44,526 nucleotides of DNA from Escherichia phage vB_EcoP-101117UKE2 (MZ234019.1); one strand, 5' to 3'; positions 1-44,526 are shown, numbered from the stretch's first letter. A program made the numbers and translations. The notes: generated by a model not told the origin, from the letters alone.

Positions 1-924
1 ATGACTACTGAAAACACCCTCCTGTCTGTTCGTGAAGCTGCAACCGCTGAGATCAAGCAACACTTAGACAATATCGGCACTTCTTACATCAAAGTTGGCG
101 CTTGTCTTAATGAGTTACGCGGTGACTTTGAAGGTCAAAAAGACTTTTTGGCTTATGTAGAATCAGAATTTGGAATCAAGAAAGCACAATGTTACAAGCT
201 GATGAGCGTAGCCCGTGTCTTTGAAGGCGATGATCGCTTTAAAGGCGTGGCGATGCGTGTAATGCTGGCACTTGTTCCTTTCGCTGATGAAAATATCATC
301 ATGGAGAAAGCCGCAGAACTTGCCGCAGCGGGCAAGCTGGACACTAATGCCGTAAATGCCCTGATTGATCCTAAGAAAGAGACAAAGGCCGAGACGGTAC
401 AATCTAAGGCTGAGGCGGTAAAACCGCAGGAGAATGCGACTGAGGCCGCAGAAACTATGCAAGGACATGCGACCTTTGAGGATTTCATCTTAGAGAAGGC
501 GAAAGAGGAATTACAAAGTGTGCCGCCAGTAAGTGAGTCGGGTAACGACGAATCCTCACCGTGGGAAGATGAAAGCAAGCCGGAAGCGCCAAAGGCCGCG
601 CCACTGGATAACACGGCTAACACGGAGAACGCCGCTATGTCTGGCCTACTGGCACAAATTAAGGCACTGACTGAGCAATTACAGGCAGCTAACGACCGCA
701 TCGCCGCCCTAACCAGTGCACGGGAAAGTAAGAAAGCGGCTGCGCCTATGCTTCCGCAGTTTAAATCCTCTTGCTTCTACGCTCGCTTAGGCTTGAGCGC
801 CGAGGAAGCAACGAAGAAAACAGCAGTGAATAAGGCACGCCGTGAACTGGTTAAACTAGGGTATGGTGAAGGTCATGAGGCATGGCCTTTGATCTCTGAG
901 GCAGTAGAAGAATTAACTAAGTAA
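1..924 (+). CDS. hypothetical early protein, last gene before RNAP (307 aa; globular N-terminal domain, acidic Ala/Glu/Pro-rich linker with coiled-coil, basic C-terminus)
   Basis: ATG at position 1; if the window is circularly joined, AAAGGTG at the window end sits 6 nt upstream as RBS; function not recognisable. Confidence 0.6.
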   Translation: MTTENTLLSVREAATAEIKQHLDNIGTSYIKVGACLNELRGDFEGQKDFLAYVESEFGIKKAQCYKLMSVARVFEGDDRFKGVAMRVMLALVPFADENIIMEKAAELAAAGKLDTNAVNALIDPKKETKAETVQSKAEAVKPQENATEAAETMQGHATFEDFILEKAKEELQSVPPVSESGNDESSPWEDESKPEAPKAAPLDNTANTENAAMSGLLAQIKALTEQLQAANDRIAALTSARESKKAAAPMLPQFKSSCFYARLGLSAEEATKKTAVNKARRELVKLGYGEGHEAWPLISEAVEELTK

Positions 925-987
925 CCTTATCGGTGGCATCTTCTTAGGTGTCACCTATTAAGGTTTCTTTCACTAGGAGTAAACAAG

Positions 988-3615
988 ATGCAAGATCTAC
1001 ACGCTATTCAGCTTCAGCTTGAGGAAGAAATGTTTAACGGCGGTATTCGTCGCTTTGAAGCAGACCAACAACGCCAGATTGCATCAGGTAATGAATCCGA
1101 TACGGCATGGAATCGTCGCCTGTTGTCGGAGCTTATCGCACCTATGGCGGAAGGTATTCAGGCTTATAAGGAAGCCTACGAAGGCAAGAAAGGACGCGCA
1201 CCGCGTGCACTGGCCTTCATTAACTGCGTAGAGAACGAAGTGGCAGCATATATCACGATGAAGATCGTAATGGATATGCTTAACACGGATGTAACCTTGC
1301 AAGCCATAGCAATGAATGTAGCTGATCGCATCGAAGATCAAGTACGCTTCAGCAAGCTGGAAGGCCACGCCGCCAAATACTTTGAAAAAGTTAAGAAGTC
1401 ACTCAAGGCAAGTAAGACTAAATCATATCGCCATGCGCACAACGTAGCGGTAGTGGCTGAGAAGTCAGTAGCTGACCGTGACACTGATTTCTCCCGCTGG
1501 GAGGCGTGGCCTAAAGATACCTTACTGCAAATCGGTATGACCTTGCTAGAAATACTGGAGAATAGCGTATTCTTCAATGGTCAACCTGTCTTCCTCCGCA
1601 CCTTGCGCACTAATGGTGGCAAGCATGGTGTTTACTACTTACAGACCAGTGAGCACGTAGGGGAGTGGATTACAGCATTTAAAGAACATGTAGCGCAACT
1701 TAGTCCGGCCTATGCACCTTGCGTCATTCCTCCGCGCCCTTGGGTGTCCCCTTTTAATGGTGGGTTTCATACTGAGAAGGTGGCAAGTCGCATCCGTTTG
1801 GTAAAAGGCAACCGTGAGCACGTCCGTAAGCTGACCAAAAAGCAAATGCCAGCAGTTTATAAGGCTGTTAATGCTTTACAGGCCACTAAGTGGCAAGTTA
1901 ACAAAGAAGTTTTGCAGGTAGTAGAAGACGTTATCCGTCTCGACCTTGGTTATGGTGTACCTTCCTTTAAACCACTCATCGACCGCGAGAACAAGCCGGC
2001 TAACCCAGTGCCGTTAGAATTTCAACACTTGCGAGGCCGCGAACTGAAGGAAATGTTAACGCCGGAACAATGGCAAGCCTTCATCAACTGGAAAGGTGAA
2101 TGCACCAAGCTGTATACCGCTGAGACTAAGCGCGGAAGTAAGTCGGCGGCAACCGTTCGCATGGTAGGACAAGCGCGCAAATACAGCCAGTTTGATGCGA
2201 TTTATTTCGTGTATGCACTGGATAGCCGCTCACGCGTTTATGCGCAATCTAGCACACTCTCACCGCAATCAAACGACCTAGGCAAGGCGTTACTGCGTTT
2301 TACCGAAGGGCAGCCGCTAAATAGCTCTGAGGCGCTTAAATGGTTTTTGGTGAACGGGGCGAATAACTGGGGTTGGGATAAGAAGACTTTCGACGTGCGC
2401 ACCGCTAACGTACTGGACGGCGAGTTTCAAGATATGTGCCGCGACATTGCAGCGGATCCTCTGACCTTTACTCAATGGGTAAATGCCGATTCACCTTATG
2501 GATTCCTTGCATGGTGCTTTGAGTATGCTCGTTATTTGGATGCACTGGATGAAGGAACACAAGATCAGTTTGTGACGCATTTACCTGTTCATCAAGATGG
2601 TAGCTGTTCTGGCATCCAGCACTACAGTGCTATGCTACGCGACGAAGTGGGTGCGAAGGCGGTAAACCTTAAACCATCCGACTCGCCTCAAGATATTTAT
2701 GGAGCGGTTGCGCAGGTTGTTATCCAGAAGAACTACGCCTACATGAATGCAGATGATACAGAAACTTTCACATCTGGAAGCGTAACACTTACAGGTGCAG
2801 AACTGCGTAGCATGGCTAGTGCATGGGATATGATAGGTATCACTCGCGGCTTAACCAAAAAGCCGGTAATGACCTTGCCTTACGGATCCACACGCTTAAC
2901 CTGCCGTGAGTCAGTGATTGATTATATCGTTGATTTGGAAGAAAAAGAGGCACAAAGGGCTATTGCAGAAGGGCGGACGGCTAATCCGGTGCACCCTTTT
3001 GACAATGACCGGAAAGACTATTTAACACCGGGTGCAGCTTACAACTATATGACGGCGTTAATTTGGCCTTCTATCTCTGAGGTTGTTAAAGCCCCTATAG
3101 TGGCAATGAAAATGATTCGCCAGCTTGCACGTTTCGCAGCTAAAAGGGATGAAGGATTAGAATACACCTTGCCAACTGGCTTCATCCTGCAACAAAAGAT
3201 AATGGCTACCGATATGCTTCGTGTATCCACTTGCTTGATGGGTGAAATCAAGATGAGTCTACAAATTGAAACGGATGTAGTGGATGAAACGGCAATGATG
3301 GGCGCTGCCGCTCCTAACTTTGTTCACGGTCACGATGCTAGTCACCTTATATTAACGGTATGTGACCTAGTGGATAAAGGTATTACCTCCATTGCAGTTA
3401 TCCATGACTCTTTCGGTACTCATGCAGGCCGCACCGCAGACCTGCGGGATAGCTTAAGGGCAGAAATGGTGAAGATGTATCAAGGCCGTAACGCTTTACA
3501 ACAATTGCTTGATGAGCATGAAGAGCGTTGGCTAGTAGATACTGGCATCCAAGTGCCAGAGCAAGGGGAGTTTAACCTTGAAGAGATATTAGTTTCTGAC
3601 TATTGCTTCGCATAA
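988..3615 (+). CDS. single-subunit DNA-dependent RNA polymerase, SP6 type (875 aa)
   Basis: Near-full-length similarity to recalled SP6 RNAP sequence ([32 protein letters not shown]..., [22 protein letters not shown]); AGGAG RBS. Confidence 0.97.
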
Positions 3616-3623
3616 TATTGATA

Positions 3624-3653
3624 GGCCATTCCTTCGGGAGTGGCCTTTTCTTT
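3624..3653 (+). terminator. intrinsic terminator after RNAP gene (early terminator analogue)
   Basis: 9-bp stem GGCCATTCC/GGAGTGGCC with one G-U, TTCG loop, followed by TTTTCTTT. Confidence 0.6.
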
Positions 3654-3688
3654 ACCTATTACCTGTAACATTTCATTAACATAAACGT

Positions 3689-3704
3689 GTCTCACATGTG
3701 AGAC
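3689..3704. repeat. 16-bp perfect palindrome GTCTCACATGTGAGAC (copy 1)
   Basis: Exact self-complementary 16-mer immediately upstream of phage promoter. Confidence 0.9.
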
Positions 3705-3706
3705 TT

Positions 3707-3729
3707 ATTTACCGGACACTATAGGAGAG
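3707..3729 (+). promoter_or_regulatory. phage RNAP promoter ATTTACCGGACACTATAGGAGAG
   Basis: Match to SP6-type promoter core GACACTATAG; part of the genome-wide consensus here. Confidence 0.8.
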
Positions 3730-3871
3730 CCGTCGGAGACGGGAAAGAGAAGGGAAGATAAAGGATATAAAGGAAGTAATAGGTATTAAAGGTTATATAG
3801 GTTTACCTAGGAATACCTATTACCTTCTTCCTTCCTCTTATTACCACTTAGAGGAAGGGCAGATCTAGGTT
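3730..3871. other. AT-rich non-coding element between tandem phage promoters; candidate primary replication origin or structured leader
   Basis: No ATG in about 140 bp; long imperfect inverted repeat (AGGAAGTAATAGGTAT ... ATACCTATTACCTTCTTCCT); position right after RNAP gene. Confidence 0.4.
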
Positions 3872-3887
3872 GTCTCACATGTGAGAC
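3872..3887. repeat. 16-bp perfect palindrome GTCTCACATGTGAGAC (copy 2)
   Basis: Exact copy, 5 nt upstream of next promoter. Confidence 0.9.
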
Positions 3888-3892
3888 TTCGT

Positions 3893-3915
3893 ATTTACCG
3901 GACAGTATAGATAAG
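3893..3915 (+). promoter_or_regulatory. phage RNAP promoter variant ATTTACCGGACAGTATAGATAAG
   Basis: Consensus with C to G change in the CACTATA core (CAGTATA). Confidence 0.6.
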
Positions 3916-3940
3916 ACTAACTTACTTTGGAGATTTAACT

Positions 3941-4069
3941 ATGCGTAACCTAGAAAAGATTACCCGTAAAACTAAGCGTTTCGACATGGAAGAAGGGCAG
4001 ACTAAAGGCAAGAAGCTGAATAAACCTGTCCGTGACCGTGCATCTAAACGCGCTGCGTGGGAGTTCTAA
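3941..4069 (+). CDS. small basic hypothetical protein (42 aa)
   Basis: ATG with TGGAG RBS; MRNLEKITRKTKRFDMEEGQTKGKKLNKPVRDRASKRAAWEF; below ORF-track size cutoff. Confidence 0.35.
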   Translation: MRNLEKITRKTKRFDMEEGQTKGKKLNKPVRDRASKRAAWEF

Positions 4070-4072
4070 GTT

Positions 4073-6061: not shown

Positions 6062-6222
6062 TGGAAATTATTAAACCAGTATTGAATATCGGTATTGACA
6101 TCCTATTCATGCTTGTGATCGCAGATTATGCTGCACGATATGGATTCAAGAAAGCTGTGAAACTTATCGTTGCATCTGGTTTTCTTATGTCAATGTTCTT
6201 TATTGTAACACGCCTTATCTAG
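6061..6222 (+). CDS. small hydrophobic protein (53 aa), probable membrane protein
   Basis: ATG overlaps primase stop (TGATG); MEIIKPVLNIGIDILFMLVIADYAARYGFKKAVKLIVASGFLMSMFFIVTRLI. Confidence 0.4.
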   Translation: MEIIKPVLNIGIDILFMLVIADYAARYGFKKAVKLIVASGFLMSMFFIVTRLI

Positions 6223-6239
6223 TGTATTTATCAGGGCTT

Positions 6240-6255
6240 GTCTCACATGTGAGAC
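6240..6255. repeat. 16-bp perfect palindrome GTCTCACATGTGAGAC (copy 3)
   Basis: Exact copy; flanking bases extend the potential stem. Confidence 0.9.
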
Positions 6256-6294
6256 AGGCTCTTATTAAGTACATTAAATAACTGGAGATTGATT

Positions 6295-6474
6295 ATGTAT
6301 AAATTAGTATTGAATGTAGGTGATTATGTTCGTAACATCAATGCAACCTCACGTAGATATCGTTGCCGTGGTACTGTGACTAATGTAAGTGAAAACAGCT
6401 ACTATGTAGAGTACAGTAATGGTATTAGACAGGCTTATCAAAAGGGAAAACAGCTACTATGTAGAGTACAGTAA
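6295..6474 (+). CDS. N-terminal fragment of hypothetical protein, truncated by frameshift from a 55-bp tandem duplication
   Basis: ATG 6295 with GGAGA RBS; ends ...ENSYYVEYSNGIRQAYQKG then out-of-frame stop. Confidence 0.5.
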   Translation: MYKLVLNVGDYVRNINATSRRYRCRGTVTNVSENSYYVEYSNGIRQAYQKGKQLLCRVQ

Positions 6475-6501
6475 TGGTATTAGACAGGCTTATCAAAAGG
6501 A
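6392..6501. repeat. perfect direct tandem duplication, 2 x 55 bp
   Basis: AAAACAGCTACTATGTAGAGTACAGTAATGGTATTAGACAGGCTTATCAAAAGG present twice back to back with period 55. Confidence 0.95.
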
Positions 6502-7301: not shown

Positions 7302-7488
7302 ACATAGCCTTAAGATGTTTGATGGTCACGAAGACCTGCAAGCACAAATTACCAACCAAGCCTTCCTGTTTGCACAGTTAACTATGGCTGAAGCAAAGAA
7401 GAACAGCCTTACTCGTGAGCAGATTATCAAGGAAGGTAGCCGTGGTGCTACTCGTCGTACCAAGAACCACAGAAGTGGTGCTCGCTAG
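7291..7488 (+). CDS. hypothetical protein (65 aa)
   Basis: ORF overlapping upstream stop; weak RBS. Confidence 0.45.
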   Translation: MQNKHSLKMFDGHEDLQAQITNQAFLFAQLTMAEAKKNSLTREQIIKEGSRGATRRTKNHRSGAR

Positions 7489-7505
7489 TCGATAAGTCAA
7501 GGGTT

Positions 7506-7521
7506 GTCTCACGTGTGAGAC
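7506..7521. repeat. 16-bp palindrome variant GTCTCACGTGTGAGAC (copy 4)
   Basis: Perfect palindrome with central CACGTG instead of CACATG. Confidence 0.9.
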
Positions 7522-7552
7522 AGCCTTTCATCATATTGATTGGAGGTGCATT

Positions 7553-12576: not shown

Positions 12577-12870
12577 ATGCCGACTATTGAAGAACGTTTC
12601 CTGATTCACGTAGACTTCTCACCCATACATCTTGGTTATCTTATCACTATTCTCTTAGGGGAGGAGGTTTATCTACATAATTACCTTATACCTGAATATG
12701 TATGTTTTAGGGATAAGATACACCCGCTTACTTGGGCACAAGAGTGGCTGCGTGAACATGTGCTGAAGGAGTGGCCTACATGCGACCAAACTTCGACTTC
12801 GGAGCTACAGTATCGGAAGACAATAATCTCATCCTGTGGCCGACTGAAGGTGAGAGAATCGCTCTCATAG
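12577..12870 (+). CDS. hypothetical protein (97 aa), overlaps exonuclease start
   Basis: ATG with GGAGA RBS; 3' part overlaps the next gene in another frame. Confidence 0.4.
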   Translation: MPTIEERFLIHVDFSPIHLGYLITILLGEEVYLHNYLIPEYVCFRDKIHPLTWAQEWLREHVLKEWPTCDQTSTSELQYRKTIISSCGRLKVRESLS

Positions 12871-28481: not shown

Positions 28482-28498
28482 TGGTATACTCAAGGTTT

Positions 28499-28514
28499 GT
28501 CTCACATGTGAGAC
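28499..28514. repeat. 16-bp perfect palindrome GTCTCACATGTGAGAC (copy 6)
   Basis: Exact copy in the junction between internal virion protein genes. Confidence 0.9.
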
Positions 28515-28548
28515 ATGCCTTTATGAATGACACTGACTAGGAGGTAAC

Positions 28549-32352: not shown

Positions 32353-35300
32353 TGAGTTATACATATACAGACCATGTAGCTAATGGCTCACAGGTTACAT
32401 TCCCTTTTCGTTTTGCAGGCAGAGATAAGGCATACATTAGTGCGACAGATGTCCAAGTGGGTTTTGTAGAAGCAGGCACTTGGCTGCCAGCAACAGGTTG
32501 GACGCTAAGTGGCACCAATCAGATCACTTTCTTAACCCCACCGACAGAAGGTAAACAAATACGAATCAGACGTATTGTAGATAAAATAAACCCATATGCT
32601 TACTTCGAGCGGGGTAATGTTTTAGATATTAACTCTTTAAATAACTCATTCATTAAGAACCTGCAAGTCAGTCAAGAAATCCTTGATGGCTTCTTCCCAG
32701 AAGGTTTCTACTTCAAGGCAGACTTAGACATGGGTGGTCATAAGATTATAAACCTACATGAGGGTTCTGAGTCAGGTGATGCTGTAAATTATGATCAGTT
32801 TAAAGAGTTATCAGACCGCGTTAATGAGATTGAATCAGATTTAACAGGTTTGTCTCACAGAACAGTACCTATGTACTATATCGCAACTGGTGGAGAGTCA
32901 CGTTGGGAGATCGGTCACTGGACTTTCGACGCTGCAATATTGTTTATTAATGGTGTATTCCAGAACCAAAACCTAGGGGCTTTCACCATCAGCAACAATG
33001 GTTTTAACTTTGCAGAACCATTGCAGAAAGGGGATGAAGTATATGCCCTTGTAGGCAGCCGCATTGCAGCACCCAATGAGTATGTAACAATCTCTGACTT
33101 GAAAGACCCTGATAAAGCGTGGAGGCTGATCGGACGCAAGTACCCTTTTGCGACAGATGGAACTTTTATGTCAAAGGTCGTACATGACGTAGACTACTCT
33201 AATCTCTTCACTGGAGCGACAGGTCTTAGTCAAGGCTTCTGTATCGTAGACACGCCGCAAGGTGCGCGCATGTTCTTCCACCAACCTATCCCAAGCACTA
33301 CTAAGGTTCGTTTCGTTGAAACAACCTTTAACCCTGAAGGGGACAATGAAAACCCTTCTGTTATTTCATTCAGTCAGGAACTGGATGATATTGGACACCA
33401 GACTGTGTGTGGTGTATATGAGGATGGGGCGGTGCGTTTATACACCTTAAGTGCAGATGAAAAATCTTATTATATCATAGATTGGCAAGGTAATAATACG
33501 TCTAATGTACATATGCGTAAGGTGCAGGTTCCTACGGAAGGTGTGTATTCTAAGGACTTATTTGTCTCAGTGGGTATGTCAGAAGATACTAAAACGCTGG
33601 TATTCCATGCAACCACCAATACTCAGGCTTTTGGTAACAAGGATGATGCGAGGGCTATTTACCTCTTCGATAGAAAAACATTGGATTCAACCTTAACTAG
33701 AGGTCTTAAGCGTAGATTCGAAGTAGGAGCACCTGCTGCACCAGATATGGCCTTCCAAGGGGTTGCTTGTGATGATTACTTCTTGTATATATATCATGGA
33801 TATAATGGTGTCCTGTTGTCTCACAAGATCTTCGTCTTCACCCTCTCAGGGGAGCATGTACGGGATATTCCCGTTGATAGTGTGCGTGTAAAATATGGAG
33901 AAAGGATGTATGGTGACGAGACTTTAGGGTATCCTGTATTGCAGGAACCGGAAGGTTTGGCAATGTATAAAGGCAAACTTTATATGTTGTGTATGGATTT
34001 CTGGTACAAGAATGCAAGTGTAGTTACTTTCGCTGGCAGGACTTTTGCTACAAGGAAATCTTCAGCGTTTTCTGGGTACAGCCCATTACAAGCATCATAT
34101 TGGACACCTACTAAACTAATACCACCCACGGGTGCACCTGATTATAGCAAGACAGCCACCTACTCCTGCTCTAATGCTACTAAGCTCAGTAAAGCTGTTG
34201 TCAGTTTAGAAATAGATGATGGCACAGGCTTCCCTGCAAGTATTGGGTGTTCATTGCCAGAGAGTAGCGCCAGTGTATACCTAAACAACCGAGCGATGAA
34301 TATGGCTATCGGGCCAAATGAAAACTTCCAGTTTGGGGTATTTCACCAGAACCTACAGTCATACAAAAACCTGTTACAGCTCAACAGAGAGAACCCAAAT
34401 ACGGATGGATCAGCGGCTGTGTGGAGGTTGTTCGGAGGTGCGTTCACAGATGACATTCAGAATGAAAGATTTGTTCAGATTAAGCATAGACTTAATCCCA
34501 CACAAGATGCCATGGAGCTTCGTGCGGATGTTGACCTTACGAGCGGTGGTGGGATTAACTTGTATTCTATGAACGACTCTGCCTCTCCTGGTCGAGTAAG
34601 GCTATATTGTACTGACGGGTATTCTTATTGGTCAGCTCTACTGAGTCCTGCATCCCCATCTTTTCACCCTGATCAAGATAAGACTCTAAACTTAGGTACA
34701 GCAAACAACCGTTGGAACCTAGTCCATTGTCAAGGTATCCGTATCATCTCTAACGACGAGTTACAGAAGCAAGTCTTTCTTGAAACTACCCGTAAAAAAG
34801 GTGCACTACAGATCTCCACTTCCGGCAATCTAGGGGTGTGGGATAGTAGCGCAGGTACTTATGTTGTGGCAACCAGACCTGATGGTACAGGCTTTTCACA
34901 GGTAGAGATGAGCTTCAAAGGTGATGTTTTTCCTGAAATAAATAATACTTACAATTTAGGTCGTGAGAATAAGGCATGGGCTAATGCCTACTTTCAAAAC
35001 GCACCGACTGTTGTCTGTGATGCCAGACTTAAAACAGATGCTAGGGAGTTAACAGCCGCAGAGAAATCCGCATTCTTAGAGATCTCTAAACTTCCGGCAG
35101 TTTGGCAATGGCTTGCTAAACTGGAAGTAGAAGGAGAGGATGCCCGCTTACACTCTGGATGTACTGTCCAAGCTGCTATCTCGGTTATGGAGAAACATGG
35201 CCTAGATTGGACTAAGTATAGTGCTTTCTGTTATGACAAATGGGATGCCAAGGAGGCTGTCTATGATATAGTGGATGGTAAGGCTATCCTTGTTGAAGAG

Positions 35301-35435
35301 GCAGTTGAGGCTGGCGACCGTTATCGTCTTCGTAGAGAAGAGCTGATGTGGTGGTGCATGAAGGCACAGAATGCTTGGATTGAATCTATTGAGGGGAGGC
35401 TGGCGAAATTAGAAGATAAACTCAAGGAGGTGTAA
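32352..35435 (+). CDS. tail fiber protein with C-terminal intramolecular-chaperone-like domain
   Basis: N-terminus resembles T7 gp17 attachment region; C-terminal CDARLK...HSGCTVQAAISVMEKHGL resembles S74-type chaperone domain; ATG 32352 overlaps upstream stop. Confidence 0.8.
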   Translation: MSYTYTDHVANGSQVTFPFRFAGRDKAYISATDVQVGFVEAGTWLPATGWTLSGTNQITFLTPPTEGKQIRIRRIVDKINPYAYFERGNVLDINSLNNSFIKNLQVSQEILDGFFPEGFYFKADLDMGGHKIINLHEGSESGDAVNYDQFKELSDRVNEIESDLTGLSHRTVPMYYIATGGESRWEIGHWTFDAAILFINGVFQNQNLGAFTISNNGFNFAEPLQKGDEVYALVGSRIAAPNEYVTISDLKDPDKAWRLIGRKYPFATDGTFMSKVVHDVDYSNLFTGATGLSQGFCIVDTPQGARMFFHQPIPSTTKVRFVETTFNPEGDNENPSVISFSQELDDIGHQTVCGVYEDGAVRLYTLSADEKSYYIIDWQGNNTSNVHMRKVQVPTEGVYSKDLFVSVGMSEDTKTLVFHATTNTQAFGNKDDARAIYLFDRKTLDSTLTRGLKRRFEVGAPAAPDMAFQGVACDDYFLYIYHGYNGVLLSHKIFVFTLSGEHVRDIPVDSVRVKYGERMYGDETLGYPVLQEPEGLAMYKGKLYMLCMDFWYKNASVVTFAGRTFATRKSSAFSGYSPLQASYWTPTKLIPPTGAPDYSKTATYSCSNATKLSKAVVSLEIDDGTGFPASIGCSLPESSASVYLNNRAMNMAIGPNENFQFGVFHQNLQSYKNLLQLNRENPNTDGSAAVWRLFGGAFTDDIQNERFVQIKHRLNPTQDAMELRADVDLTSGGGINLYSMNDSASPGRVRLYCTDGYSYWSALLSPASPSFHPDQDKTLNLGTANNRWNLVHCQGIRIISNDELQKQVFLETTRKKGALQISTSGNLGVWDSSAGTYVVATRPDGTGFSQVEMSFKGDVFPEINNTYNLGRENKAWANAYFQNAPTVVCDARLKTDARELTAAEKSAFLEISKLPAVWQWLAKLEVEGEDARLHSGCTVQAAISVMEKHGLDWTKYSAFCYDKWDAKEAVYDIVDGKAILVEEAVEAGDRYRLRREELMWWCMKAQNAWIESIEGRLAKLEDKLKEV

Positions 35436-35629: not shown

Positions 35630-35912
35630 ACATGCAGCCACAGAGGATGAAGTAGGCATCCTTCATGGCGCTATTACGAAGATGTTTAATAAGAAAGCAC
35701 AGGCTATACTGGACACTATAGAAGAAGACCCTGATTCTGCTATGCACTTAGTGTCAGGTAAGGATATTGGAGCCATGTGTAAGTGGGTTTTAGATAATGG
35801 CATTACTGCAACCCCTGCTGCACAGCAGGAAGAATCTAAGTTGTCTAAGCGTCTCAAGGCTATCCGAGAGGCGTCCAGTGGTAAGATCATTCAGTTTACT
35901 AAGGAGGATTAA
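35613..35912 (+). CDS. terminase small subunit (putative)
   Basis: Synteny with T7 gene 18; ATG 35613 with GGAGG RBS (track start 35568 overlaps holin). Confidence 0.6.
   Translation: MSVHNKHAATEDEVGILHGAITKMFNKKAQAILDTIEEDPDSAMHLVSGKDIGAMCKWVLDNGITATPAAQQEESKLSKRLKAIREASSGKIIQFTKED
35704..35726 (+). promoter_or_regulatory. promoter-like site CTATACTGGACACTATAGAAGAA inside small terminase gene
   Basis: 15 of 17 upstream positions plus initiating region match consensus. Confidence 0.35.
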
Positions 35913-37807
35913 TGGCTAAGGCAAGAGAATCACAAGCGGAGGCTCTTGCCAGATGGGAGATGCTACACGAGTTACAGCAGACCTTCCCTTATACGGCAGA
36001 AGGTTTGCTTCTCTTTGCTGATACAGTTATTCATAATTTAATTGCAGGTAGTCCTCATCTGATTCGTATGCAGGCAGACATCTTGAAGTTCCTATTCTAT
36101 GGGCACAAGTATCGCCTCATCGAAGCGCCCCGTGGTATCGCTAAAACTACGCTGGCAGCAATCTATACGGTGTTCCGTATCATTCATGATCCTCATAAGC
36201 GTATCATGGTTGTATCCCAAAACGCCAAGCGAGCAGAGGAAATTGCAGGTTGGGTGGTCAAAATCTTCCGAGGATTGGACTTCCTAGAGTTTATGCTGCC
36301 AGACATCTACGCTGGCGACCGTGCATCCGTTAAGGCATTCGAGATTCACTATACACTGCGTGGAAGCGACAAGTCCCCTTCTGTATCCTGCTACTCTATT
36401 GAAGCAGGTATGCAGGGTGCTCGTGCAGACATCATTCTAGCAGATGACGTTGAATCTATGCAGAATGCGCGTACCGCAGCAGGCCGTGCATTGCTTGAGG
36501 AATTGACCAAGGAGTTTGAATCTATCAACCAGTTTGGTGATATAATCTACCTTGGTACACCTCAGAACGTCAACTCAATCTATAATAACCTTCCGGCTCG
36601 TGGTTATTCTGTTCGCATCTGGACAGCTCGATACCCTTCTGTAGAGCAGGAGCAATGCTATGGTGGTTTCCTTGCACCTATGATTGTGCAAGATATGAAG
36701 GATAACCCAGCATTGCGAACAGGTTATGGTCTGGATGGCAACAGCGGCGCCCCTTGTGCACCTGAAATGTACGATGATGATGTCCTGATTGAGAAGGAAA
36801 TTTCACAGGGTGCTGCTAAGTTCCAGCTTCAGTTCATGCTTAACACTCGCATGATGGATGCTGACAGATACCCATTACGCCTAAACAATCTAATCTTCAC
36901 CTCATTTGGTACAGAGGAAGTCCCTGTGATGCCTACGTGGAGTAATGACTCCATTAACATCATTGGGGATGCACCTAAGTATGGCAACAAGCCTACAGAT
37001 TTCATGTATCGACCTGTGGCACGTCCATACGAATGGGGTGCTGTTACACGCAAGATTATGTATATTGACCCCGCTGGTGGCGGTAAGAACGGAGATGAGA
37101 CTGGTGTAGCCATCGTATTCCTGCACGGCACATTCATTTATGTGTATCAGTGCTTTGGTGTACCGGGCGGATACCGAGAATCTTCCCTGAATCGCATTGT
37201 GCAGGTCGCAAAGCAGGCAGGGGTTAAAGAGGTATTCATAGAGAAAAACTTTGGTCATGGCGCGTTTGAGGCGGTAATTAAGCCATACTTTGAACGAGAG
37301 TGGCCTGTGACACTTGAAGAGGATTACGCAACTGGTCAAAAAGAACTCCGCATCATTGAGACACTAGAGCCATTGATGACCGCGCATAGGCTCATCTTCA
37401 ATGCGGAAATGGTTAAGTCAGATTTCTCTTCAGTACAGAACTACCCGCTTGAACTGCGGATGTCTTATAGTCTGTTCCATCAAATGTCGAACATCACTAT
37501 TGAGAAGAACAGCCTCAGGCACGATGACCGCTTAGACGCTCTGTATGGCGCTGTGCGTCAATTAACTTCTCAGATAGACTATGACGAGGTTACTCGAATT
37601 AATCGCCTCAGAGCGCAGGAGATGCGCGAGTATATACAGGCGATGAACACACCTAAACTTCGTCGGGCTATGCTGTACGGAGATTATGGTGATGAGCGAA
37701 GAACAACCAACACATCACTAGCGATGCAGCAGAGGATTTACGGGCAGAATTGGAGGAACCGCTCTGGGTATAGAAATACACTTTCCTCAAGAATTTCAAG
37801 GATTTAG
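35912..37807 (+). CDS. terminase large subunit (631 aa)
   Basis: ATPase and nuclease domains by pattern, size and synteny with T7 gp19. Confidence 0.92.
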   Translation: MAKARESQAEALARWEMLHELQQTFPYTAEGLLLFADTVIHNLIAGSPHLIRMQADILKFLFYGHKYRLIEAPRGIAKTTLAAIYTVFRIIHDPHKRIMVVSQNAKRAEEIAGWVVKIFRGLDFLEFMLPDIYAGDRASVKAFEIHYTLRGSDKSPSVSCYSIEAGMQGARADIILADDVESMQNARTAAGRALLEELTKEFESINQFGDIIYLGTPQNVNSIYNNLPARGYSVRIWTARYPSVEQEQCYGGFLAPMIVQDMKDNPALRTGYGLDGNSGAPCAPEMYDDDVLIEKEISQGAAKFQLQFMLNTRMMDADRYPLRLNNLIFTSFGTEEVPVMPTWSNDSINIIGDAPKYGNKPTDFMYRPVARPYEWGAVTRKIMYIDPAGGGKNGDETGVAIVFLHGTFIYVYQCFGVPGGYRESSLNRIVQVAKQAGVKEVFIEKNFGHGAFEAVIKPYFEREWPVTLEEDYATGQKELRIIETLEPLMTAHRLIFNAEMVKSDFSSVQNYPLELRMSYSLFHQMSNITIEKNSLRHDDRLDALYGAVRQLTSQIDYDEVTRINRLRAQEMREYIQAMNTPKLRRAMLYGDYGDERRTTNTSLAMQQRIYGQNWRNRSGYRNTLSSRISRI

Positions 37808-38247: not shown

Positions 38248-38264
38248 TAAAAGGAGAAGATAAT

Positions 38265-38552: not shown

Positions 38553-38553
38553 T

Positions 38554-39587: not shown

Positions 39588-39695
39588 GTTGTGTTGCATG
39601 GTGTGAACGCATGGTTGCTAAGGCTTCAGAGGAAGGTAACTATGAAGATTGGCAGAACTATTCAACTTTATTAGCTCAATGGAAAGGGAGATGCA

Positions 39696-39845: not shown

Positions 39846-40059
39846 GTTTCTAGAAGTGCTGGCAGGTCTTATTGGCCTGCTTGTCTCTGCTAAGAAGAAA
39901 CAAGAAGAGAAGGAGGCACAAAGTGAAGCGAATCATGTTAGCGATGACCCTGCTGGTTGGTTCGCTGATCACTTCCGGGTGTCAGCAGGCGCTACCAGAG
40001 AAGAAGGGTGTGAAGCCGCTGAAGCCGACGCTGACGGCAGTTTACGAAGTGGACGATAA
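39838..40059 (+). CDS. i-spanin-like protein (putative)
   Basis: GTG start coupled to upstream stop; N-terminal TM segment FLEVLAGLIGLLVSA then charged region; contains o-spanin candidate in another frame. Confidence 0.35.
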   Translation: MNKFLEVLAGLIGLLVSAKKKQEEKEAQSEANHVSDDPAGWFADHFRVSAGATREEGCEAAEADADGSLRSGR

Positions 40060-40132
40060 GGTCTGCTTCAGTAAGCCTGACGCTACACAATTAGGTTTGT
40101 ATATTCTTTCGCTAGAACGCGGGTATAATTAA
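39923..40132 (+). CDS. o-spanin-like outer-membrane lipoprotein (putative)
   Basis: GTG 39923 with AGGAGG RBS; signal peptide KRIMLAMTLLVGSLITSGC with lipobox-like TSGC, Pro-rich mature region. Confidence 0.5.
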   Translation: MKRIMLAMTLLVGSLITSGCQQALPEKKGVKPLKPTLTAVYEVDDKVCFSKPDATQLGLYILSLERGYN

Positions 40133-40161
40133 TACATATCTTTATGTATCAATGTCCTACG

Positions 40162-40184
40162 ATTTACTGGACACTATAGAAGGA
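40162..40184 (+). promoter_or_regulatory. phage RNAP promoter ATTTACTGGACACTATAGAAGGA upstream of tailspike
   Basis: Consensus match. Confidence 0.85.
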
Positions 40185-40261
40185 TAGATAGTGCCGTTCA
40201 TTTGAGCGGCCTATTACTAGCCAATCTTCATAGGGAGGGTTGGGAAGTAATAGGAGAATTT

Positions 40262-41785
40262 ATGGCTAAACTAACGAGAGTCACTGACTGGCTTGTTAAG
40301 GTGAAGTCTAGACTCACTGGTGCAGTAGAGCGACTGCTTGAAGATAAGTTAAATGACACGGTTAGTGTTAAGGACTTCGGTGCTAAGGGTGACGGTGTGA
40401 CAGACGACACACAAGCATTTGCTGCCGCCTCAGCCGCATCGCCTCAAGGTGTTTATGTGCCTGACGGAACATATTTATTACCAGAAGATATTAATGGCAG
40501 GTTCTATGGTTCTGGTAAACGCATCAAGGCTGTAGGTGATGGTGGTATTCCTTTTACCAATGTAGCTCAGTCACATAGTAACCTAATATTAGGATATGAT
40601 GCTGCAAAGGATTACACGGACGAAGGGAAAGGCAACCAATTAGTATTACTTGGCCCAAGCTCCGGTCGTAACCTTACCACTGGTACTAACTCCATTGTGG
40701 TAGGTGTTGGTGGCCTATCGGGTGATACATTAGAAGATGCACTAACAGATAAATCACCTTTCACTGGTACAGAGATTATTAGCATTGGTATCAATGCTCT
40801 TAAGAAAACTACCACTGGCAACAACATGATTGGTATTGGTCGTGATGCCTTGAACGAGTGTAAAGATGGAAGATTTAACGTAGCTGTAGGTATGTCTGCT
40901 TTGCAGCAGCTACACTCTGGTGAGGCTAACGTAGCAATAGGGCGTTCAGCCGGTATGCGTACTGGCATCTTCACTAACGAAGAGGGTGTACGATTAGGCT
41001 ATACAAAATGTAGCGGTAATACCTTAATAGGTAACGCGGCTGGTCGTGAATTGAAGTCAGGTAATCATAACACCGCCGTAGGCAATGGTGCTATGCGAGG
41101 TGTCAGTTCTGATATTAATCCATATACTGGCACTCTAGAGGGTAATTTTAATACAGCTATTGGTGTTGATACATTAAACTCCTTAGCATCTGGTGAGTTG
41201 AACACCATGATTGGCGCAAGGGCTGGACGTAAATTACCTAGTGGCTCTGGTAACATCTTCATAGGTGCGGATGCAGGTGCAGGTATTAACGTTGAAAAGT
41301 CTAACACTCTCATTATTAACAACCACACTGGCTTACCTTTCGTAGAAGGTATTATGGGTGGTGCTCAGAGTGGGAATAACTACTTACGTGTTGATGGCAG
41401 TGTAGCACCTCAGATTGATAACACAAGAACTTGTGGTCAGTCTAGCCGTAGATGGCAGACTGTCTTTGCTACCAATGGTGTTATCCAGACATCGGATGGA
41501 CGATGCAAGGATGTCTACGATATTGCCAAGAAGGAGTACATGGCTGGTCTAGAGTTAGCCTCTAGTATGATTAAGTTCAAATGGACAGATACTGAAGAAG
41601 ATAAGTATCACTTCGGTTGTCTGGCACAAGAGGTCATGCTGATTATGGAGAAACATGGGTTAAACCCTCTGGATTATTCCCTCGTTACCTATGATGCTGA
41701 AGCAGATATGTATGGTGTTAACTATGCAGAATTGTCTTGCTTCTGTATCGCAGCAATGTCCAATCATGTACTAGGCAGTGCGTAA
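40262..41785 (+). CDS. tailspike with beta-helix depolymerase-like domain and C-terminal chaperone-like domain
   Basis: VKDFGAKGDGVTDDTQAF motif; repeated N-x-A-x-G units; C-terminal SDGRCKD...YHFGCLAQEV...EKHGL; ATG 40262 with AGGAG RBS. Confidence 0.85.
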   Translation: MAKLTRVTDWLVKVKSRLTGAVERLLEDKLNDTVSVKDFGAKGDGVTDDTQAFAAASAASPQGVYVPDGTYLLPEDINGRFYGSGKRIKAVGDGGIPFTNVAQSHSNLILGYDAAKDYTDEGKGNQLVLLGPSSGRNLTTGTNSIVVGVGGLSGDTLEDALTDKSPFTGTEIISIGINALKKTTTGNNMIGIGRDALNECKDGRFNVAVGMSALQQLHSGEANVAIGRSAGMRTGIFTNEEGVRLGYTKCSGNTLIGNAAGRELKSGNHNTAVGNGAMRGVSSDINPYTGTLEGNFNTAIGVDTLNSLASGELNTMIGARAGRKLPSGSGNIFIGADAGAGINVEKSNTLIINNHTGLPFVEGIMGGAQSGNNYLRVDGSVAPQIDNTRTCGQSSRRWQTVFATNGVIQTSDGRCKDVYDIAKKEYMAGLELASSMIKFKWTDTEEDKYHFGCLAQEVMLIMEKHGLNPLDYSLVTYDAEADMYGVNYAELSCFCIAAMSNHVLGSA

Positions 41786-41799
41786 GCACTGCTTTTCTC
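41773..41799 (+). terminator. intrinsic terminator spanning tailspike stop codon
   Basis: Stem GCAGTGC/GCACTGC, GTAA loop, then TTTTCTC. Confidence 0.6.
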
Positions 41800-41865
41800 G
41801 CAACTTCCCTTGAAGCAATCTAGCGATACCTTCAAGGGAATAGCTCAAGAAAGCAAGGAGGTTTG

Positions 41866-42015
41866 ATGCCGTTAATCAAATCGGTTAAGCAAAGTGCTGT
41901 ACGCCAGAACACAGAAGAACTTATTCAATCAGGACGTGACCCTAAGCAGGCCTATGCCATTGCCAAGGATGTACAGCGTCGTGCCATGAAGAAACCTTCT
42001 GCATCTTCTGCGTAA
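41866..42015 (+). CDS. small basic hypothetical protein (49 aa), last gene before genome end
   Basis: ATG with AAGGAGG RBS. Confidence 0.35.
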   Translation: MPLIKSVKQSAVRQNTEELIQSGRDPKQAYAIAKDVQRRAMKKPSASSA

Positions 42016-42127
42016 GCAGGTTAATATCTTAGTGTACACAAGGGCAGACTTAGGTTTGCTCTTAGTGTATTCACAAGGATGATCACAAAGTAACCAAGTC
42101 AAAATTTTGATGTAGGCGTGTGTCAGC

Positions 42128-42300
42128 TCTCTCGCCCTCGCCCTCGCCGGGTTGTCCCCATAGGGTGGCCTGAGGGAATCCGTCTTCGACGGGCAGGGCT
42201 GATGTACTCCTTGTACTAGCTTAGTAGTACACAAGGGCTGGCCTTTTGTTTTGCCGTGTACTAGCAAGGTGGAACGCTGGAGAGCGCCTAGGACGGCCTA
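42128..42300. other. probable physical genome terminus and terminal-repeat region
   Basis: TCTCTCGCCCTCGCCCTCGCCGGGTTGTCCCCATAGGGTGG resembles the recalled T7 left-end sequence; lies between last late gene and early promoters. Confidence 0.5.
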
Positions 42301-42386
42301 GGGATGGGCTTAGTGGTGGACAAGGTGATTGCCTTAGTGAAGCCGCTTAGTGCATTCCTGAGGCCATTCAGGGCGTTTATGAGGTA

Positions 42387-42416
42387 TTGACAGGGTGGGC
42401 GGGCGTGGGCTATCTG
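42387..42416 (+). promoter_or_regulatory. candidate host sigma70 early promoter
   Basis: -35 TTGACA at 42387; weak -10 TATCTG after 18-bp GC-rich spacer. Confidence 0.3.
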
Positions 42417-42790
42417 TTCGTTTCGCTAACGCTCCACTCACAAGCCTGACGTGTACCTTAGTTATTACCTTAGGTTATTCCTTGATGGATAGCTTAGGTT
42501 AACCTGAGTGGATTACCTTAGTTAAAGCCTTAGTGCTTAGCTTAGTATCAGCTTAGTAGTGTACCTTAGTCAGACTTAGTGTCTTCTCTTAGTGATTGCA
42601 CATGCAAGCATGTAAGATGCCATTAGGTCGCGGTCGGTAGACCGCTAAGAAGAAATAATAGTAATAAGATGCAGTAGGAGGAACACCAGAAACCTGGCCA
42701 ACCTAGCCTATCCTAGCTCTGTATCTATTGCTTTTCCTTAGTCTAACACGTTAGACAACCTATCTTATTCTTAGTGATGGTAACTTAGTG

Positions 42791-42820
42791 TTGACAAGAT
42801 AATCTTAGTGTAATACTATG
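42791..42820 (+). promoter_or_regulatory. candidate host sigma70 early promoter
   Basis: -35 TTGACA at 42791, 17-bp spacer, -10 TACTAT. Confidence 0.5.
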
Positions 42821-42962
42821 CATCACGTAGGCGGTGCTGAGGCACCTAGTAGCCAGCTAGTAAGGCATACGAAGAGACTAGTGCCTACATTGTTCTTTAA
42901 CAATTTGCTTAGTGTAACCTATGTATGCCGTGGTTAATTACTTATTGAATGAGGGATTAACT

Positions 42963-43142
42963 ATGACATTAAACAACCGTGAACTGTCCGTTCTCTTCAC
43001 TATGTTGTGCTACATGATTCGTAACAACGAATTACTTACAGACGATGAGTTAGCCTTGTATCACCGCTTTCTTAACGAAGGTTGGACTGATACAGTTAAT
43101 CAATACCGTAACATGATAGATGAGTTGAGGGAGGGTAAATAA
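42963..43142 (+). CDS. early hypothetical protein (59 aa)
   Basis: ATG 42963 with GAGGG RBS (track start 42921 lacks RBS); stop overlaps next start (TAATG). Confidence 0.55.
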   Translation: MTLNNRELSVLFTMLCYMIRNNELLTDDELALYHRFLNEGWTDTVNQYRNMIDELREGK

Positions 43143-43366
43143 TGTATCAACATGAGGTATTCTTTGAATCAGCTAGCGAAGCTATTCGCTTCCGTGATGA
43201 TATGATGCAAGCTGGTGTAGGCGTTGATGTGTATCACTATTTGATAGATTACGACACTGAATATCACCGAGTTACCTTAGTATCTGAGTATGACAACCAA
43301 GTCATTACTGAGTATCTAGGTAGTGAAGATTATGATTACGATGAAGTAATCACGACAAATCTCTAA
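43142..43366 (+). CDS. early, strongly acidic protein (74 aa); candidate DNA-mimic or anti-defence protein
   Basis: GAGGG RBS; Asp/Glu/Tyr-rich composition; leading-end position next to ocr. Confidence 0.6.
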   Translation: MYQHEVFFESASEAIRFRDDMMQAGVGVDVYHYLIDYDTEYHRVTLVSEYDNQVITEYLGSEDYDYDEVITTNL

Positions 43367-43374
43367 ATTAACTA

Positions 43375-43404
43375 TTGACAGCCACGGCATACAAGGTTAC
43401 ATTA
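43375..43404 (+). promoter_or_regulatory. candidate host sigma70 promoter
   Basis: -35 TTGACA at 43375, 17-bp spacer, -10 TACATT. Confidence 0.4.
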
Positions 43405-43480
43405 AGCACATAGCCGATAGGCAACGCTCTTTAACAATCTGGTTTGTGTCTTGATAGGCTAACTAACTAAGGTAATTATT

Positions 43481-43591
43481 ATGAAAGGTTTAATTTGTGT
43501 AGAACGTATGGTCAATGGTAAACTTGAAATATTACCACTGGAAAACCAATCTAGCTTCAAAGAGTGGTATGGCTGTTTCTCACTGATTTAA
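43481..43591 (+). CDS. small hypothetical protein (36 aa)
   Basis: ATG preceded by AACTAACTAAGG; weak support. Confidence 0.25.
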   Translation: MKGLICVERMVNGKLEILPLENQSSFKEWYGCFSLI

Positions 43592-43742
43592 GGTAAAGGC
43601 TGGCACTAGTCAGCCTATCAAGGCGCAAACCAAGCTCTTTAACAATTTGGATGGTAGCTTCTTAGTCTGGATAGGTTAAACCTAGGAGATTCTCTTGAGT
43701 CTCCTATAATGTAACCTAACTAACTAAATGAGGATTAATAAC

Positions 43743-44096
43743 ATGGCTATGTCTAATATGACTTACTCTCAGGTTTACAACACCGCTCATGCTGCATTAG
43801 TTGAACGTATCTGGAATGATGCTATTGATTGTATCGATAACGCACATGATGCAATCCATGAGGTAGCGGACAGTGCTGTACCAATCTATTATGCTGACAT
43901 CTTCTCAGTGATGGCGAGTGAAGGTATTGATCACTTCTTCGAAGACTCCGGCCTGATGCCAGATACTAAGGATGTAACGGTCGTACTACAAGCCCGTATC
44001 TATGAACAACTCACCATTGATTTATGGGAACGTGTTCAAGATATGATTGTTGCGTACACCACTTACGCTGATTATTCAGAAGAAGAGGAAGAATAA
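43743..44096 (+). CDS. ocr: Ocr-like anti-restriction DNA-mimic protein (117 aa)
   Basis: MAMSNMTY start and [52 protein letters not shown] match recalled T7 gp0.3; acidic C-terminus; GAGG RBS. Confidence 0.9.
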
Positions 44097-44098
44097 GG

Positions 44099-44212
44099 AT
44101 GGAAAAGCAATATAACTTTATCTTTTCAGACGGTGTGACCCTGAAGTGTTCCCTGCGTTTCGCGCAGATTCGCGAGGAAGTGCTAGGAACTACATACAAA
44201 CTATTTAGCTGA
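44099..44212 (+). CDS. small hypothetical protein (37 aa)
   Basis: ATG just after ocr stop; overlaps downstream promoter; weak. Confidence 0.25.
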   Translation: MEKQYNFIFSDGVTLKCSLRFAQIREEVLGTTYKLFS

Positions 44213-44225
44213 CACTATAAGAGAG
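44203..44225 (+). promoter_or_regulatory. phage RNAP promoter variant ATTTAGCTGACACTATAAGAGAG
   Basis: SP6-consensus-like upstream half; altered initiation region TATAAGAG. Confidence 0.55.
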
Positions 44226-44285
44226 GGTTTAACAGGGCGCTCTTGCGAGAGTGCCCGATTAAATCAACTTAACGAGATATTAAAT

Positions 44286-44462
44286 ATGAAATACATACTG
44301 ATTGCTATGTTTTCTGGCTTCATTGGCTATGCTGGTGCTTCTTATGACAACTACAGAAGTAAGCAATTGGCTGCTGAAAAGTGGGATAAAACCTATTTTG
44401 CTTGTATGAAACAAGGTAATTTGATGCAAGATTGCATACTTAAAGCGCGCAGCGAAGAGTGA
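44286..44462 (+). CDS. small protein with signal-peptide-like N-terminus (58 aa)
   Basis: MKYILIAMFSGFIGYAGA hydrophobic N-terminus, two Cys; weak RBS. Confidence 0.4.
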   Translation: MKYILIAMFSGFIGYAGASYDNYRSKQLAAEKWDKTYFACMKQGNLMQDCILKARSEE

Positions 44463-44526
44463 TGAGCCTATAGCCTACTTAAGTGGGCTATGTGAACACC
44501 ATTCATTAACTCAAAAGGTGACTATT

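Follow-up and report, generated by a model that had tools for sequence, protein, structure and literature searches.

The window analysed here, which is the whole 44,526-nt stretch of Escherichia phage vB_EcoP-101117UKE2 (MZ234019.1), begins on a start codon and closes just behind what looks like the ribosome-binding site of the same gene. This raises the question whether ends that meet so neatly reflect the physical form of a viral genome or the way in which its record was made. The first-pass annotation had described the window as a circular permutation of a complete SP6-like genome. We consider it very probable that the window is accounted for by a rotated, collapsed and overlap-untrimmed record of an SP6-like phage with a linear genome.

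Judged by its sequence, the window is a known, already published podophage that infects E. coli lytically and belongs to the SP6/K1-5 type (Autographiviridae, Molineuxvirinae, Vectrevirus). Vectrevirus phages assembled with SPAdes 3.13/3.14.1 and annotated with Prokka were reported by Loose et al. (2021; Antibiotics 10:1337; PMC8614997), whose Table 1 lists two isolates of 44,526 bp, MZ234019 and MZ234020. Full-length megablast matches, reported at 100.0%, were obtained with MZ234020.1 (vB_EcoP-101118B1) and MZ234032.1 (vB_EcoP-G3A1). The former is byte-identical to the window over 44,471 bp once each record is relieved of its own 55-bp duplication, and the latter differs by one SNP within the first 8 kb. 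Identity to Vectrevirus LL11 is 90.5% across 96% of the first 25 kb and reaches 87-88% at the nucleotide level for K1-type Vectrevirus records, a similarity to named members of the genus that is of genus level; the MZ234020.1 record is itself classed as Vectrevirus. Two further relatives, Raoultella phage vB_Ro_P3a (PQ197423) and Escherichia phage vB_EcoP_R4596 (MK373771), share 95-98% nucleotide identity with the window and are colinear with it from end to end.

The expected SP6-like gene content, gene order and group length were borne out by the mapping of SP6 proteins and by a length of 44.5 kb, which lies within the group range of 43.6-45.2 kb. SP6 gp7 to gp51 fall in order on 1-42006, while gp3 and gp5 (ocr) fall on 42963-44093; altogether 40 of the 52 SP6 proteins were matched, in the same order after a circular shift, and the host-specific tailspikes gp49 and gp50 together with some tiny ORFs were the only SP6 proteins without a match in the window. 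All large ORFs lie on the plus strand, and colinearity with P3a and R4596 holds after rotating the window to 42131. The genes that matter most for the argument are the following:

1..924, plus strand: gene 1, homologue of SP6 gp7, 307 aa, function-unassigned (63% identity to SP6 gp7, full length)
988..3615, plus strand: single-subunit phage RNA polymerase, homologue of SP6 gp8 (85% identity, full length; also the record annotation)
35912..37807, plus strand: large terminase of the T7/SP6 type (78% identity to SP6 gp41; annotation)
43728..44096, plus strand: ocr, a DNA-mimic anti-restriction protein and SP6 gp5 homologue, an early gene near the true left end (Pfam PF08684, E = 2.7e-42)

A phage-encoded single-subunit RNA polymerase in the early region is what is found in SP6-like phages. 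Could the window instead be a prophage, or a piece cut out of a longer bacterial contig? No point was found in favour of this idea, whose probability is negligible. Flanking bacterial sequence, which the first-pass annotation had named as its telltale, was not found; the whole window matches phage records, among them full-length ones of equal size. Searching 5,426 complete E. coli genomes with 40000-44526 gave no match, no integrase- or repressor-named product occurs among the 60 annotated CDS of MZ234020.1, a tRNA scan of the entire window was empty, and composition and skew are uniform.

The ends of the window do join without a gap. A gene does start at position 1, as had been proposed: its ATG opens a 307-aa ORF (1-924), in which no Pfam domain was found. 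The proposed AAAGGTG lies at 44514-44520, 6 nt ahead of the junction. The latter belongs to the following element:

44514..44521, plus strand: AAAGGTGA, the Shine-Dalgarno sequence serving gene 1; the ATG at position 1 follows 5-6 nt later

AAGGTGA is kept upstream of the homologous gene in relatives, and the LL11 annotation places an RBS at the equivalent position; AGGTGA (44516-44521) we take to be a 6-nt complement of the 16S rRNA 3' end. The 1,200-bp stretch obtained by joining 43927-44526 to 1-600 aligned across the junction as a single HSP both to P3a 1766-2974 (97.6%) and to R4596 1800-3007 (98.7%). This alignment, together with the colinearity with SP6, supports the view that the window holds one full genome unit. 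The seamless ends are nevertheless bookkeeping and not biology, as the record was opened at an arbitrary gene start, between the equivalents of SP6 gp6 and gp7. All Vectrevirus records of the study that were checked (G3A1, UTI89UKE2/3 and MZ234020) have this ATG as their first codon; one further record from the study opens at the gp16 ATG. That records of one study open exactly at start codons points to manual or automatic rotation.

The position of the physical ends can be predicted from relatives that carry exact direct terminal repeats (DTRs) in their records, namely SP6 (174 bp), P3a (283 bp) and R4596 (285 bp). All three repeats map to one site of the window with conserved boundary motifs, the start and end motifs of the SP6 repeat being the same as those at 42128/42131-42412:

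42128..42412, plus strand: predicted unit of the direct terminal repeat, collapsed to one copy; the exact DTRs of P3a and R4596 both map here, once
42128-42131 (TCTCTCGCCCTCGCC...), plus strand: predicted physical left end, from relatives
42412 (...GGGCGTGGGCTA), plus strand: predicted physical right end, from relatives
42000..42950, plus strand: concatemer-junction region with a dense CTTAGT(G) array, all copies pointing the same way, that covers the terminal repeat and extends into both its flanks

Relatives sharing 90-98% identity with the window lead us to infer that the real DNA ends of this virus lie approximately 2.1-2.4 kb upstream of the end of the window. The homologue of their repeat occurs once, at 42128-42412, and a collapsed assembly would hide its duplication at the physical ends. 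Within 42000..42950 we counted 19 of the 36 plus-strand copies of CTTAGT in the genome, where 0.8 would be expected, and none on the minus strand; period-24 repeats follow at 42464-42546. For the SP6-like phage UAB_Phi78 the DTR has been established experimentally with Bal31 (PMC4837284), and DTRs have been reported for R4596 and KAW1A4500 (PMC6563267). Published repeat lengths are not fully reliable, since the text of Korf et al. (PMC6563267) gives 428 bp for R4596 and the deposited record shows an exact repeat of 285 bp.

These observations bear on the possibility that the start of the window reflects a real permutation, the genome being circular in the biological sense or else circularly permuted, with terminal redundancy, through headful packaging. 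Such a genome would agree with the seamless ends and with the label 'circular' on the P3a record, but we regard it as highly improbable: close relatives (95-98% identity) carry exact DTRs at a fixed position of the same site, the strand-specific CTTAGT cluster marks one unique junction region, and the window, like the study's other records, begins exactly on a start codon. The terminase shares 78% identity with its counterpart in SP6, a DTR packager with fixed ends, and appears to be of the type that packages from concatemers, generating fixed ends and a short DTR; neither the lack of fixed ends nor the pac-type terminase of headful-packaged phages was found. To judge from these comparisons, the physical genome is linear, neither circular nor permuted. 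A circular permutation hence describes the deposited record correctly but not the DNA in the virion; phages of this group carry a linear molecule that has fixed ends and a short exact terminal repeat. Likewise, the window is complete in that it contains all unique sequence, but it holds only one collapsed copy of the terminal repeat, and its positions 6446-6500 are artefactual, as the following feature reveals:

6391..6500, no strand assigned: exact 55-bp tandem duplication (6391-6445 = 6446-6500), missing from MZ234020.1 and G3A1

The duplication frameshifts a conserved SP6 gp11-like gene of 240 aa, and with one copy deleted the gene again encodes a protein that matches QZI79632 exactly. MZ234020.1 carries a duplication of its own, likewise exact and 55 bp long but different, at 30940, where it splits the gene of a gp16-like internal virion protein into two CDS. 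In T7, gp16 is essential. A third occurs at 11118 in MZ234023, an unrelated Kayfunavirus of the same study. Three records of one study therefore contain three 55-bp duplications in three places, each of which breaks or abuts genes. No exact 55-bp tandem duplication was detected in G3A1, SP6, P3a or LL11, and the junction of the window's duplication had no match in IMG/VR. Read as a real mutation of the isolate that inactivates the gp11-like gene, the duplication would simply be taken as given in the sequence; tandem duplications do occur in phages, and a gene without assigned function may be dispensable. Against this very improbable reading stand the recurrence of exactly 55 bp elsewhere in the otherwise identical MZ234020.1 and in an unrelated phage, the use of SPAdes, and the single copy of the stretch in G3A1, P3a, R4596 and SP6. 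An exact repeat of k length, at differing positions and absent from a sister assembly, is the signature of assembler overlap. From its recurrence elsewhere in MZ234020.1 and in the unrelated phage, we infer that the duplication is an untrimmed k = 55 contig-end overlap, presumably left by SPAdes, which marks the point where the original cycle was broken. The true unique length is 44,471 bp, and 6446-6500 is an assembly artefact. A k of 55 is standard for SPAdes; with 2x300 reads and automatic k, however, the program normally ends at k = 127. The value of 55 would for this reason imply a non-default or a meta/single-cell setting, which is unstated in PMC8614997.

A rotated, collapsed and untrimmed record could have arisen as follows. 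The virion would contain a linear molecule whose fixed ends carry a direct repeat of about 283-285 bp. In a short-read assembly the two repeat copies would collapse into one, upon which the de Bruijn graph would close into a cycle, and SPAdes would write this cycle out as a contig with an overlap of k = 55 between its ends. The depositors would then have rotated the sequence so that it opens at the start codon of gene 1, which lies upstream of the RNA polymerase gene, and left the overlap untrimmed. This course of events would account for the seamless succession of promoter, 5' stem-loop, small ORF, RNA hairpin, Shine-Dalgarno sequence, gene 1 and RNA polymerase, for the single internal copy of the terminal repeat at 42128-42412, and for the gene-breaking duplication at 6391-6500.

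Once the ends are joined, the region ahead of gene 1 and the upstream early region contain the following elements:

42791..42819, plus strand: sigma-70-like promoter candidate (TTGACA-17-TACTAT) for early transcription by host RNA polymerase (consensus match only)
43375-43403, plus strand: second sigma-70-like promoter candidate (consensus match only)
44203..44225, plus strand: variant SP6-type phage promoter ATTTAGCTGACACTATAAGAGAG upstream of the gene 1/RNA polymerase unit, predicted +1 = A at 44220
44226..44265, plus strand: 5' stem-loop of the predicted transcript (-21.2 kcal/mol, z = -5.8)
44286..44462, plus strand: small ORF of 58 aa with a hydrophobic N-terminus, between the predicted 5' stem-loop and the hairpin
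44457..44504, plus strand: conserved RNA hairpin, supported by covariation, that separates the small ORF from gene 1 (core 44469-44492)

As the number of sigma-70 sites in the early region did not exceed shuffle expectation, the early promoters are only tentatively placed. SP6/K1-5-type promoters with the GACACTATAG core precede middle and late genes: thirteen GACACTATA sites lie on the plus strand, and the 21-nt consensus ATTTACTGGACACTATAGAAG gave 10 matches with up to three mismatches, all on the plus strand, and 0 in shuffles. Of 19 relatives, 18, SP6 included, keep the variant promoter at 44203..44225 ahead of their gene 1 homologue, and the 5' stem-loop is also found in L013, L015 and L016. 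The small ORF, which has no Pfam match, is an optional module, missing along with the hairpin in 3 of 19 relatives.

The hairpin that had been noted before the RBS is present, one base off its proposed coordinates (44469-44490), with ATAGCCTAC-TTAA-GTGGGCTAT at 44470-44491. As RNA, its core pairs 44469-44478 with 44483-44492 over 10 bp and is part of a longer, imperfect stem (-20.5 kcal/mol, z = -3.1). In the alignment of 44457..44504, 97.2% of the cells of 18 pairs are paired and 6 pairs show compensatory changes; none of 500 shuffles reached this pairing score, and slid controls gave 30-49%. A Rfam gathering scan of the entire window was empty, so that the hairpin matches no Rfam family. With both the structure and the covariation expected of RNase III sites, it is probably an RNase III-type processing or stabilising site. 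In T7, such sites are two-tier hairpins between early genes. An intrinsic terminator was rejected, the stem having no T-run behind it and the site not being among those of the terminator scan. A DNA cruciform or protein site is disfavoured, since the variation includes A-U pairs replaced by G-U as well as G-U pairs that are conserved, both neutral for RNA but not for DNA. We speculate, with considerable doubt, that promoter (A at +1), 5' stem-loop, small ORF and two-tier hairpin could constitute an undescribed autoregulatory module ahead of the gp7-like and RNA polymerase genes. The phage polymerase would then use a deliberately weak promoter for renewed transcription of its own gene, and RNase III processing of the hairpin would set mRNA stability or the translation of gp7 and the polymerase.

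There is nothing new about the phage or its family, about the gene order or about the type of genome ends, and no new kind of feature is present; the record errors and the positions of the elements may be undocumented. The value of the analysis is mainly curatorial and its scientific weight small. Deposited records (MZ234020, MZ234023 and evidently the window's own) contain 55-bp artefacts that break genes, gp16 included, and records of the study omit one terminal-repeat copy and open at arbitrary genes. Before such a sequence is used for engineering, phage-therapy dossiers, comparative genomics or training data, it should be re-opened at ~42128 and the duplicated 55-mer deleted.

Compared with its sisters, the window shares its opening point with MZ234020.1 and G3A1 and differs in the 55-bp duplication, which begins at 6391 here and at 30940 in MZ234020.1 and is lacking from G3A1. 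P3a and R4596 possess the same two receptor-binding-protein genes at equivalent positions and diverge in patches of the early region and near the second tailspike gene; unlike the window, their records open at the physical left end and include both DTR copies. Salmonella phage SP6 (NC_004831; Zindervirus), the type of the SP6-like group, is only ~76% identical at the nucleotide level, with amino-acid identities of 85% for RNA polymerase, 90% for DNA polymerase and 78% for TerL. It has in common with the window the gene order gp3-gp5, gp7-gp48 and gp51, the GACACTATAG promoter core, the DTR start and end motifs, and the variant promoter and RNA hairpin upstream of gp7, whereas its P22-like tailspike gp49 and gp50 are replaced by two other proteins, identified by their Pfam domains:

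32349-35435, plus strand: T7-tail-fibre-N-domain/beta-propeller/S74 protein
40262-41785, plus strand: pectate-lyase-like/S74 protein

The resemblance to T7 is one of layout. According to what Dunn and Studier reportedly described in 1983, the linear T7 genome has a short exact terminal repeat amid arrays of a short oriented repeat; the junction region of the window has the same layout with no sequence similarity and a different repeat motif, CTTAGT. The RNase III sites of T7 are likewise intercistronic two-tier hairpins resembling the predicted one of the window, again with no sequence similarity.

The reading of the window as a circular permutation of a complete SP6-like genome is supported, and the permutation stems from the manner in which the record was deposited. 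The genome itself is already public. Megablast of both window halves against 50,697 phage records returned full-length matches, at a reported 100.0%, to Escherichia phage vB_EcoP-101118B1 (MZ234020.1), whose 44,526 bp equal the window length, and to vB_EcoP-G3A1 (G3A1; MZ234032.1; 44,471 bp). Raoultella phage vB_Ro_P3a (P3a, ~97.5%), CC1/CC2, vB_EcoP_R4596 (R4596, 95.5%) and LL11 (90.5%) follow, with K1-type Vectrevirus phages (~88%) and SP6 (~76%) more distant; the record places the phage in Autographiviridae, Molineuxvirinae, Vectrevirus. The source study, based on MiSeq reads, SPAdes 3.13/3.14.1 and Prokka, lists two 44,526-bp isolates in its Table 1, 101117UKE2 (MZ234019) and 101118B1 (MZ234020) (Loose et al., 2021; PMC8614997). 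Bacterial flanks, which the first-pass annotation had set against its own reading, were not found: the entire window is phage sequence by megablast, and 40000-44526 has no megablast match among 5,426 complete E. coli genomes. No tRNA was found across the window, the annotation of the twin record MZ234020.1 lists no integrase, and the window is uniform in GC content and GC skew.

Gene order, searched with all 52 SP6 proteins, is colinear with SP6 as had been claimed: gp7 to gp51 match in order along 1-42006, and gp3 and gp5 (ocr) at 42963-44093. Only gp49 and gp50, which are host-specific tailspikes, and a few tiny ORFs of SP6 lack a match in the window. These tailspikes are replaced by two receptor-binding proteins, both labelled merely 'hypothetical protein' in the record's annotation:

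Receptor-binding proteins of the window
32349-35435, receptor-binding protein 1, 1028 aa: T7 tail-fibre N-domain, 5-bladed beta-propeller platform, S74 chaperone domain
40262-41785, receptor-binding protein 2, 507 aa: pectate-lyase-like domain and S74 chaperone domain

Coding in MZ234020.1 is on the + strand except for three very short minus-strand CDS (3600-3695, 3922-4011 and 12618-12734), which are probably spurious Prokka calls.

The two window ends belong together. The ATG at position 1 does start a 307-aa ORF (gene 1, an SP6 gp7 homologue), and the proposed ribosome-binding site AAAGGTG lies at 44514-44520, 6 bases from the window end. The join is seamless, since a 1,200-bp construct (window 43927-44526 plus 1-600) gives a single HSP in both P3a (1766-2974, 97.6%) and R4596 (1800-3007, 98.7%). 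Comparison of upstream regions among 19 IMG/VR relatives of gene 1 showed that the Shine-Dalgarno (SD) sequence AAGGTGA is conserved, that a hairpin precedes gene 1 in 16 of the 19, and that a variant phage-type promoter, TGACACTATAAGAG, with a predicted +1 A replacing G, lies ahead of the gp7-like gene and the RNAP gene in 18, SP6 included. These conserved elements indicate that joining the ends restores one unit:

Elements of the restored unit, in order
44203-44225, variant phage-type promoter
44226-44265, 5' stem-loop (-21.2 kcal/mol, z = -5.8)
44286-44462, small ORF, 58 aa
44457-44504, hairpin
44514-44521, SD of gene 1, conserved AAGGTGA
1-924, gene 1, 307-aa ORF
988-3615, RNAP gene

The promoter sequence at 44203-44225 suggests that the phage RNAP could transcribe its own gene. 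The small ORF and the hairpin are missing together in three of the 19 relatives (L013, L015 and L016), in which the promoter lies 83 nt from the gene 1 ATG; they behave as a single optional module. Two further matches to the promoter core GACACTATAG occur within coding sequence, at 6951 (ATTTTGCCGACACTATAGAAGAT) and 27319 (CATTAGGTGACACTATAGGAGTA), outside the 3-mismatch consensus search.

The hairpin ATAGCCTAC/TTAA/GTGGGCTAT described in the first-pass annotation exists, at 44470-44491, one base from where it had been placed. RNAalifold of 17 sequences yields a two-tier hairpin of 18 pairs at 44457-44504, 6 of which show compensatory double changes. With this structure fixed, 97.2% of cells pair versus 91.8% in column shuffles, none of 500 shuffles matches the observed value whichever measure is used, and sliding the partners by 1-3 columns lowers pairing to 30-49%. 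A-U to G-U switches and a conserved U-G pair favour an RNA-level rather than a DNA-level structure. An intrinsic terminator was rejected: no T-run follows the stem, and the terminator scan makes no call. With T7 early mRNA as the model, the hairpin separating the small ORF from gene 1 would most likely serve for RNase III-type processing or for 3' stabilisation. No Rfam family matched in the whole window. A separate intergenic element of ~67 nt, centred on the perfect palindrome TGTCTCAC(A/G)TGTGAGACA, occurs in three copies, also present in LL11:

Copies of the ~67-nt element
6214-6280, copy 1 (-29.5 kcal/mol, z = -8.3)
7480-7546, copy 2 (-27.8 kcal/mol, z = -4.5)
28473-28539, copy 3 (-20.6 kcal/mol, z = -3.2)

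All three fold as two-tier hairpins with an asymmetric internal loop, an architecture resembling that of T7 RNase III sites.

The window and MZ234020.1 are not byte-identical; each carries an exact 55-bp tandem duplication that the other lacks:

Tandem duplications in the twin records
Window 6391-6445 = 6446-6500
MZ234020.1 30940-31049

With each duplication deleted the two are identical, at 44,471 bp. The window duplication frameshifts an SP6 gp11-like gene of 240 aa, which MZ234020.1, G3A1 and R4596 carry intact, and deleting the duplication gives back the identical protein; the MZ234020.1 duplication cuts the gene for a gp16-like internal virion protein in two, annotated as separate CDS. 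G3A1, with neither duplication, differs from the window by one SNP within the first 8 kb. The study's unrelated phage MZ234023 likewise carries a single exact tandem duplication, 55 bp long, at 11118; none was found in SP6, P3a or LL11. Of the k-mer sizes tried on the window (21, 33, 55, 77, 99 and 127), 55 alone matches. The simplest reading of 6391-6500 is a k=55 assembler overlap that was never trimmed: an assembly graph with collapsed direct terminal repeats (DTRs) would close as a cycle, SPAdes would write it out with k=55 bases shared between the contig termini, and rotation would follow with the overlap left in place. A duplication at another position, with length and start shared, would fit the window being MZ234019, the twin assembled independently of MZ234020.1. 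R4596 (MK373771), from another laboratory, has an exact 168-bp tandem duplication at 19870-20205, between CDS 00029 and the portal gene.

G3A1, UTI89UKE2/3 and MZ234020 open at the same ATG as the window, and the record of an unrelated Kayfunavirus of the same study opens at the gp16 ATG. The window's own ends carry no terminal repeat. Relatives deposited from their physical ends have exact DTRs of 174 bp (SP6), 283 bp (P3a) and 285 bp (R4596), and in P3a as in R4596 the two repeat copies correspond to a single window site, 42130/42131-42412. The SP6 repeat starts with TCTCTCGGCCTCGGCCTCGCCGGG and ends with GGGCGTGGGCTA; its window counterpart runs from TCTCTCGCCCTCGCCCTCGCCGGG at 42128 to GGGCGTGGGCTA ending at 42412. 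On the + strand, 42000-42950 holds 19 copies of CTTAGT against 0.8 expected (36 genome-wide), and on the - strand of this interval none. The single repeat site and the CTTAGT cluster together lead us to infer a linear physical genome, which would start at ~42128, end at 42412 one turn later and measure ~44.75 kb (44,471 bp plus about 283-285 bp). A short exact DTR was shown experimentally in the SP6-like UAB_Phi78 by Bal31 and run-off sequencing (PMC4837284), and short DTRs are reported for R4596 and KAW1A4500 (PMC6563267), the R4596 repeat being 428 bp in that text versus an exact 285 bp in the record.

The permuted window is what the assembly and deposition of a DTR phage ordinarily yield, and the sole additions made here are corrective: the inferred physical ends, the repeat copy that is missing and the presumed 55-bp artefact. 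The CTTAGT(G) cluster lies both within the predicted terminal repeat and next to it, and its region includes period-24 imperfect tandem repeats at 42464-42546. In T7 the concatemer junction is surrounded by short oriented repeat arrays, to which the CTTAGT cluster of the window is comparable.
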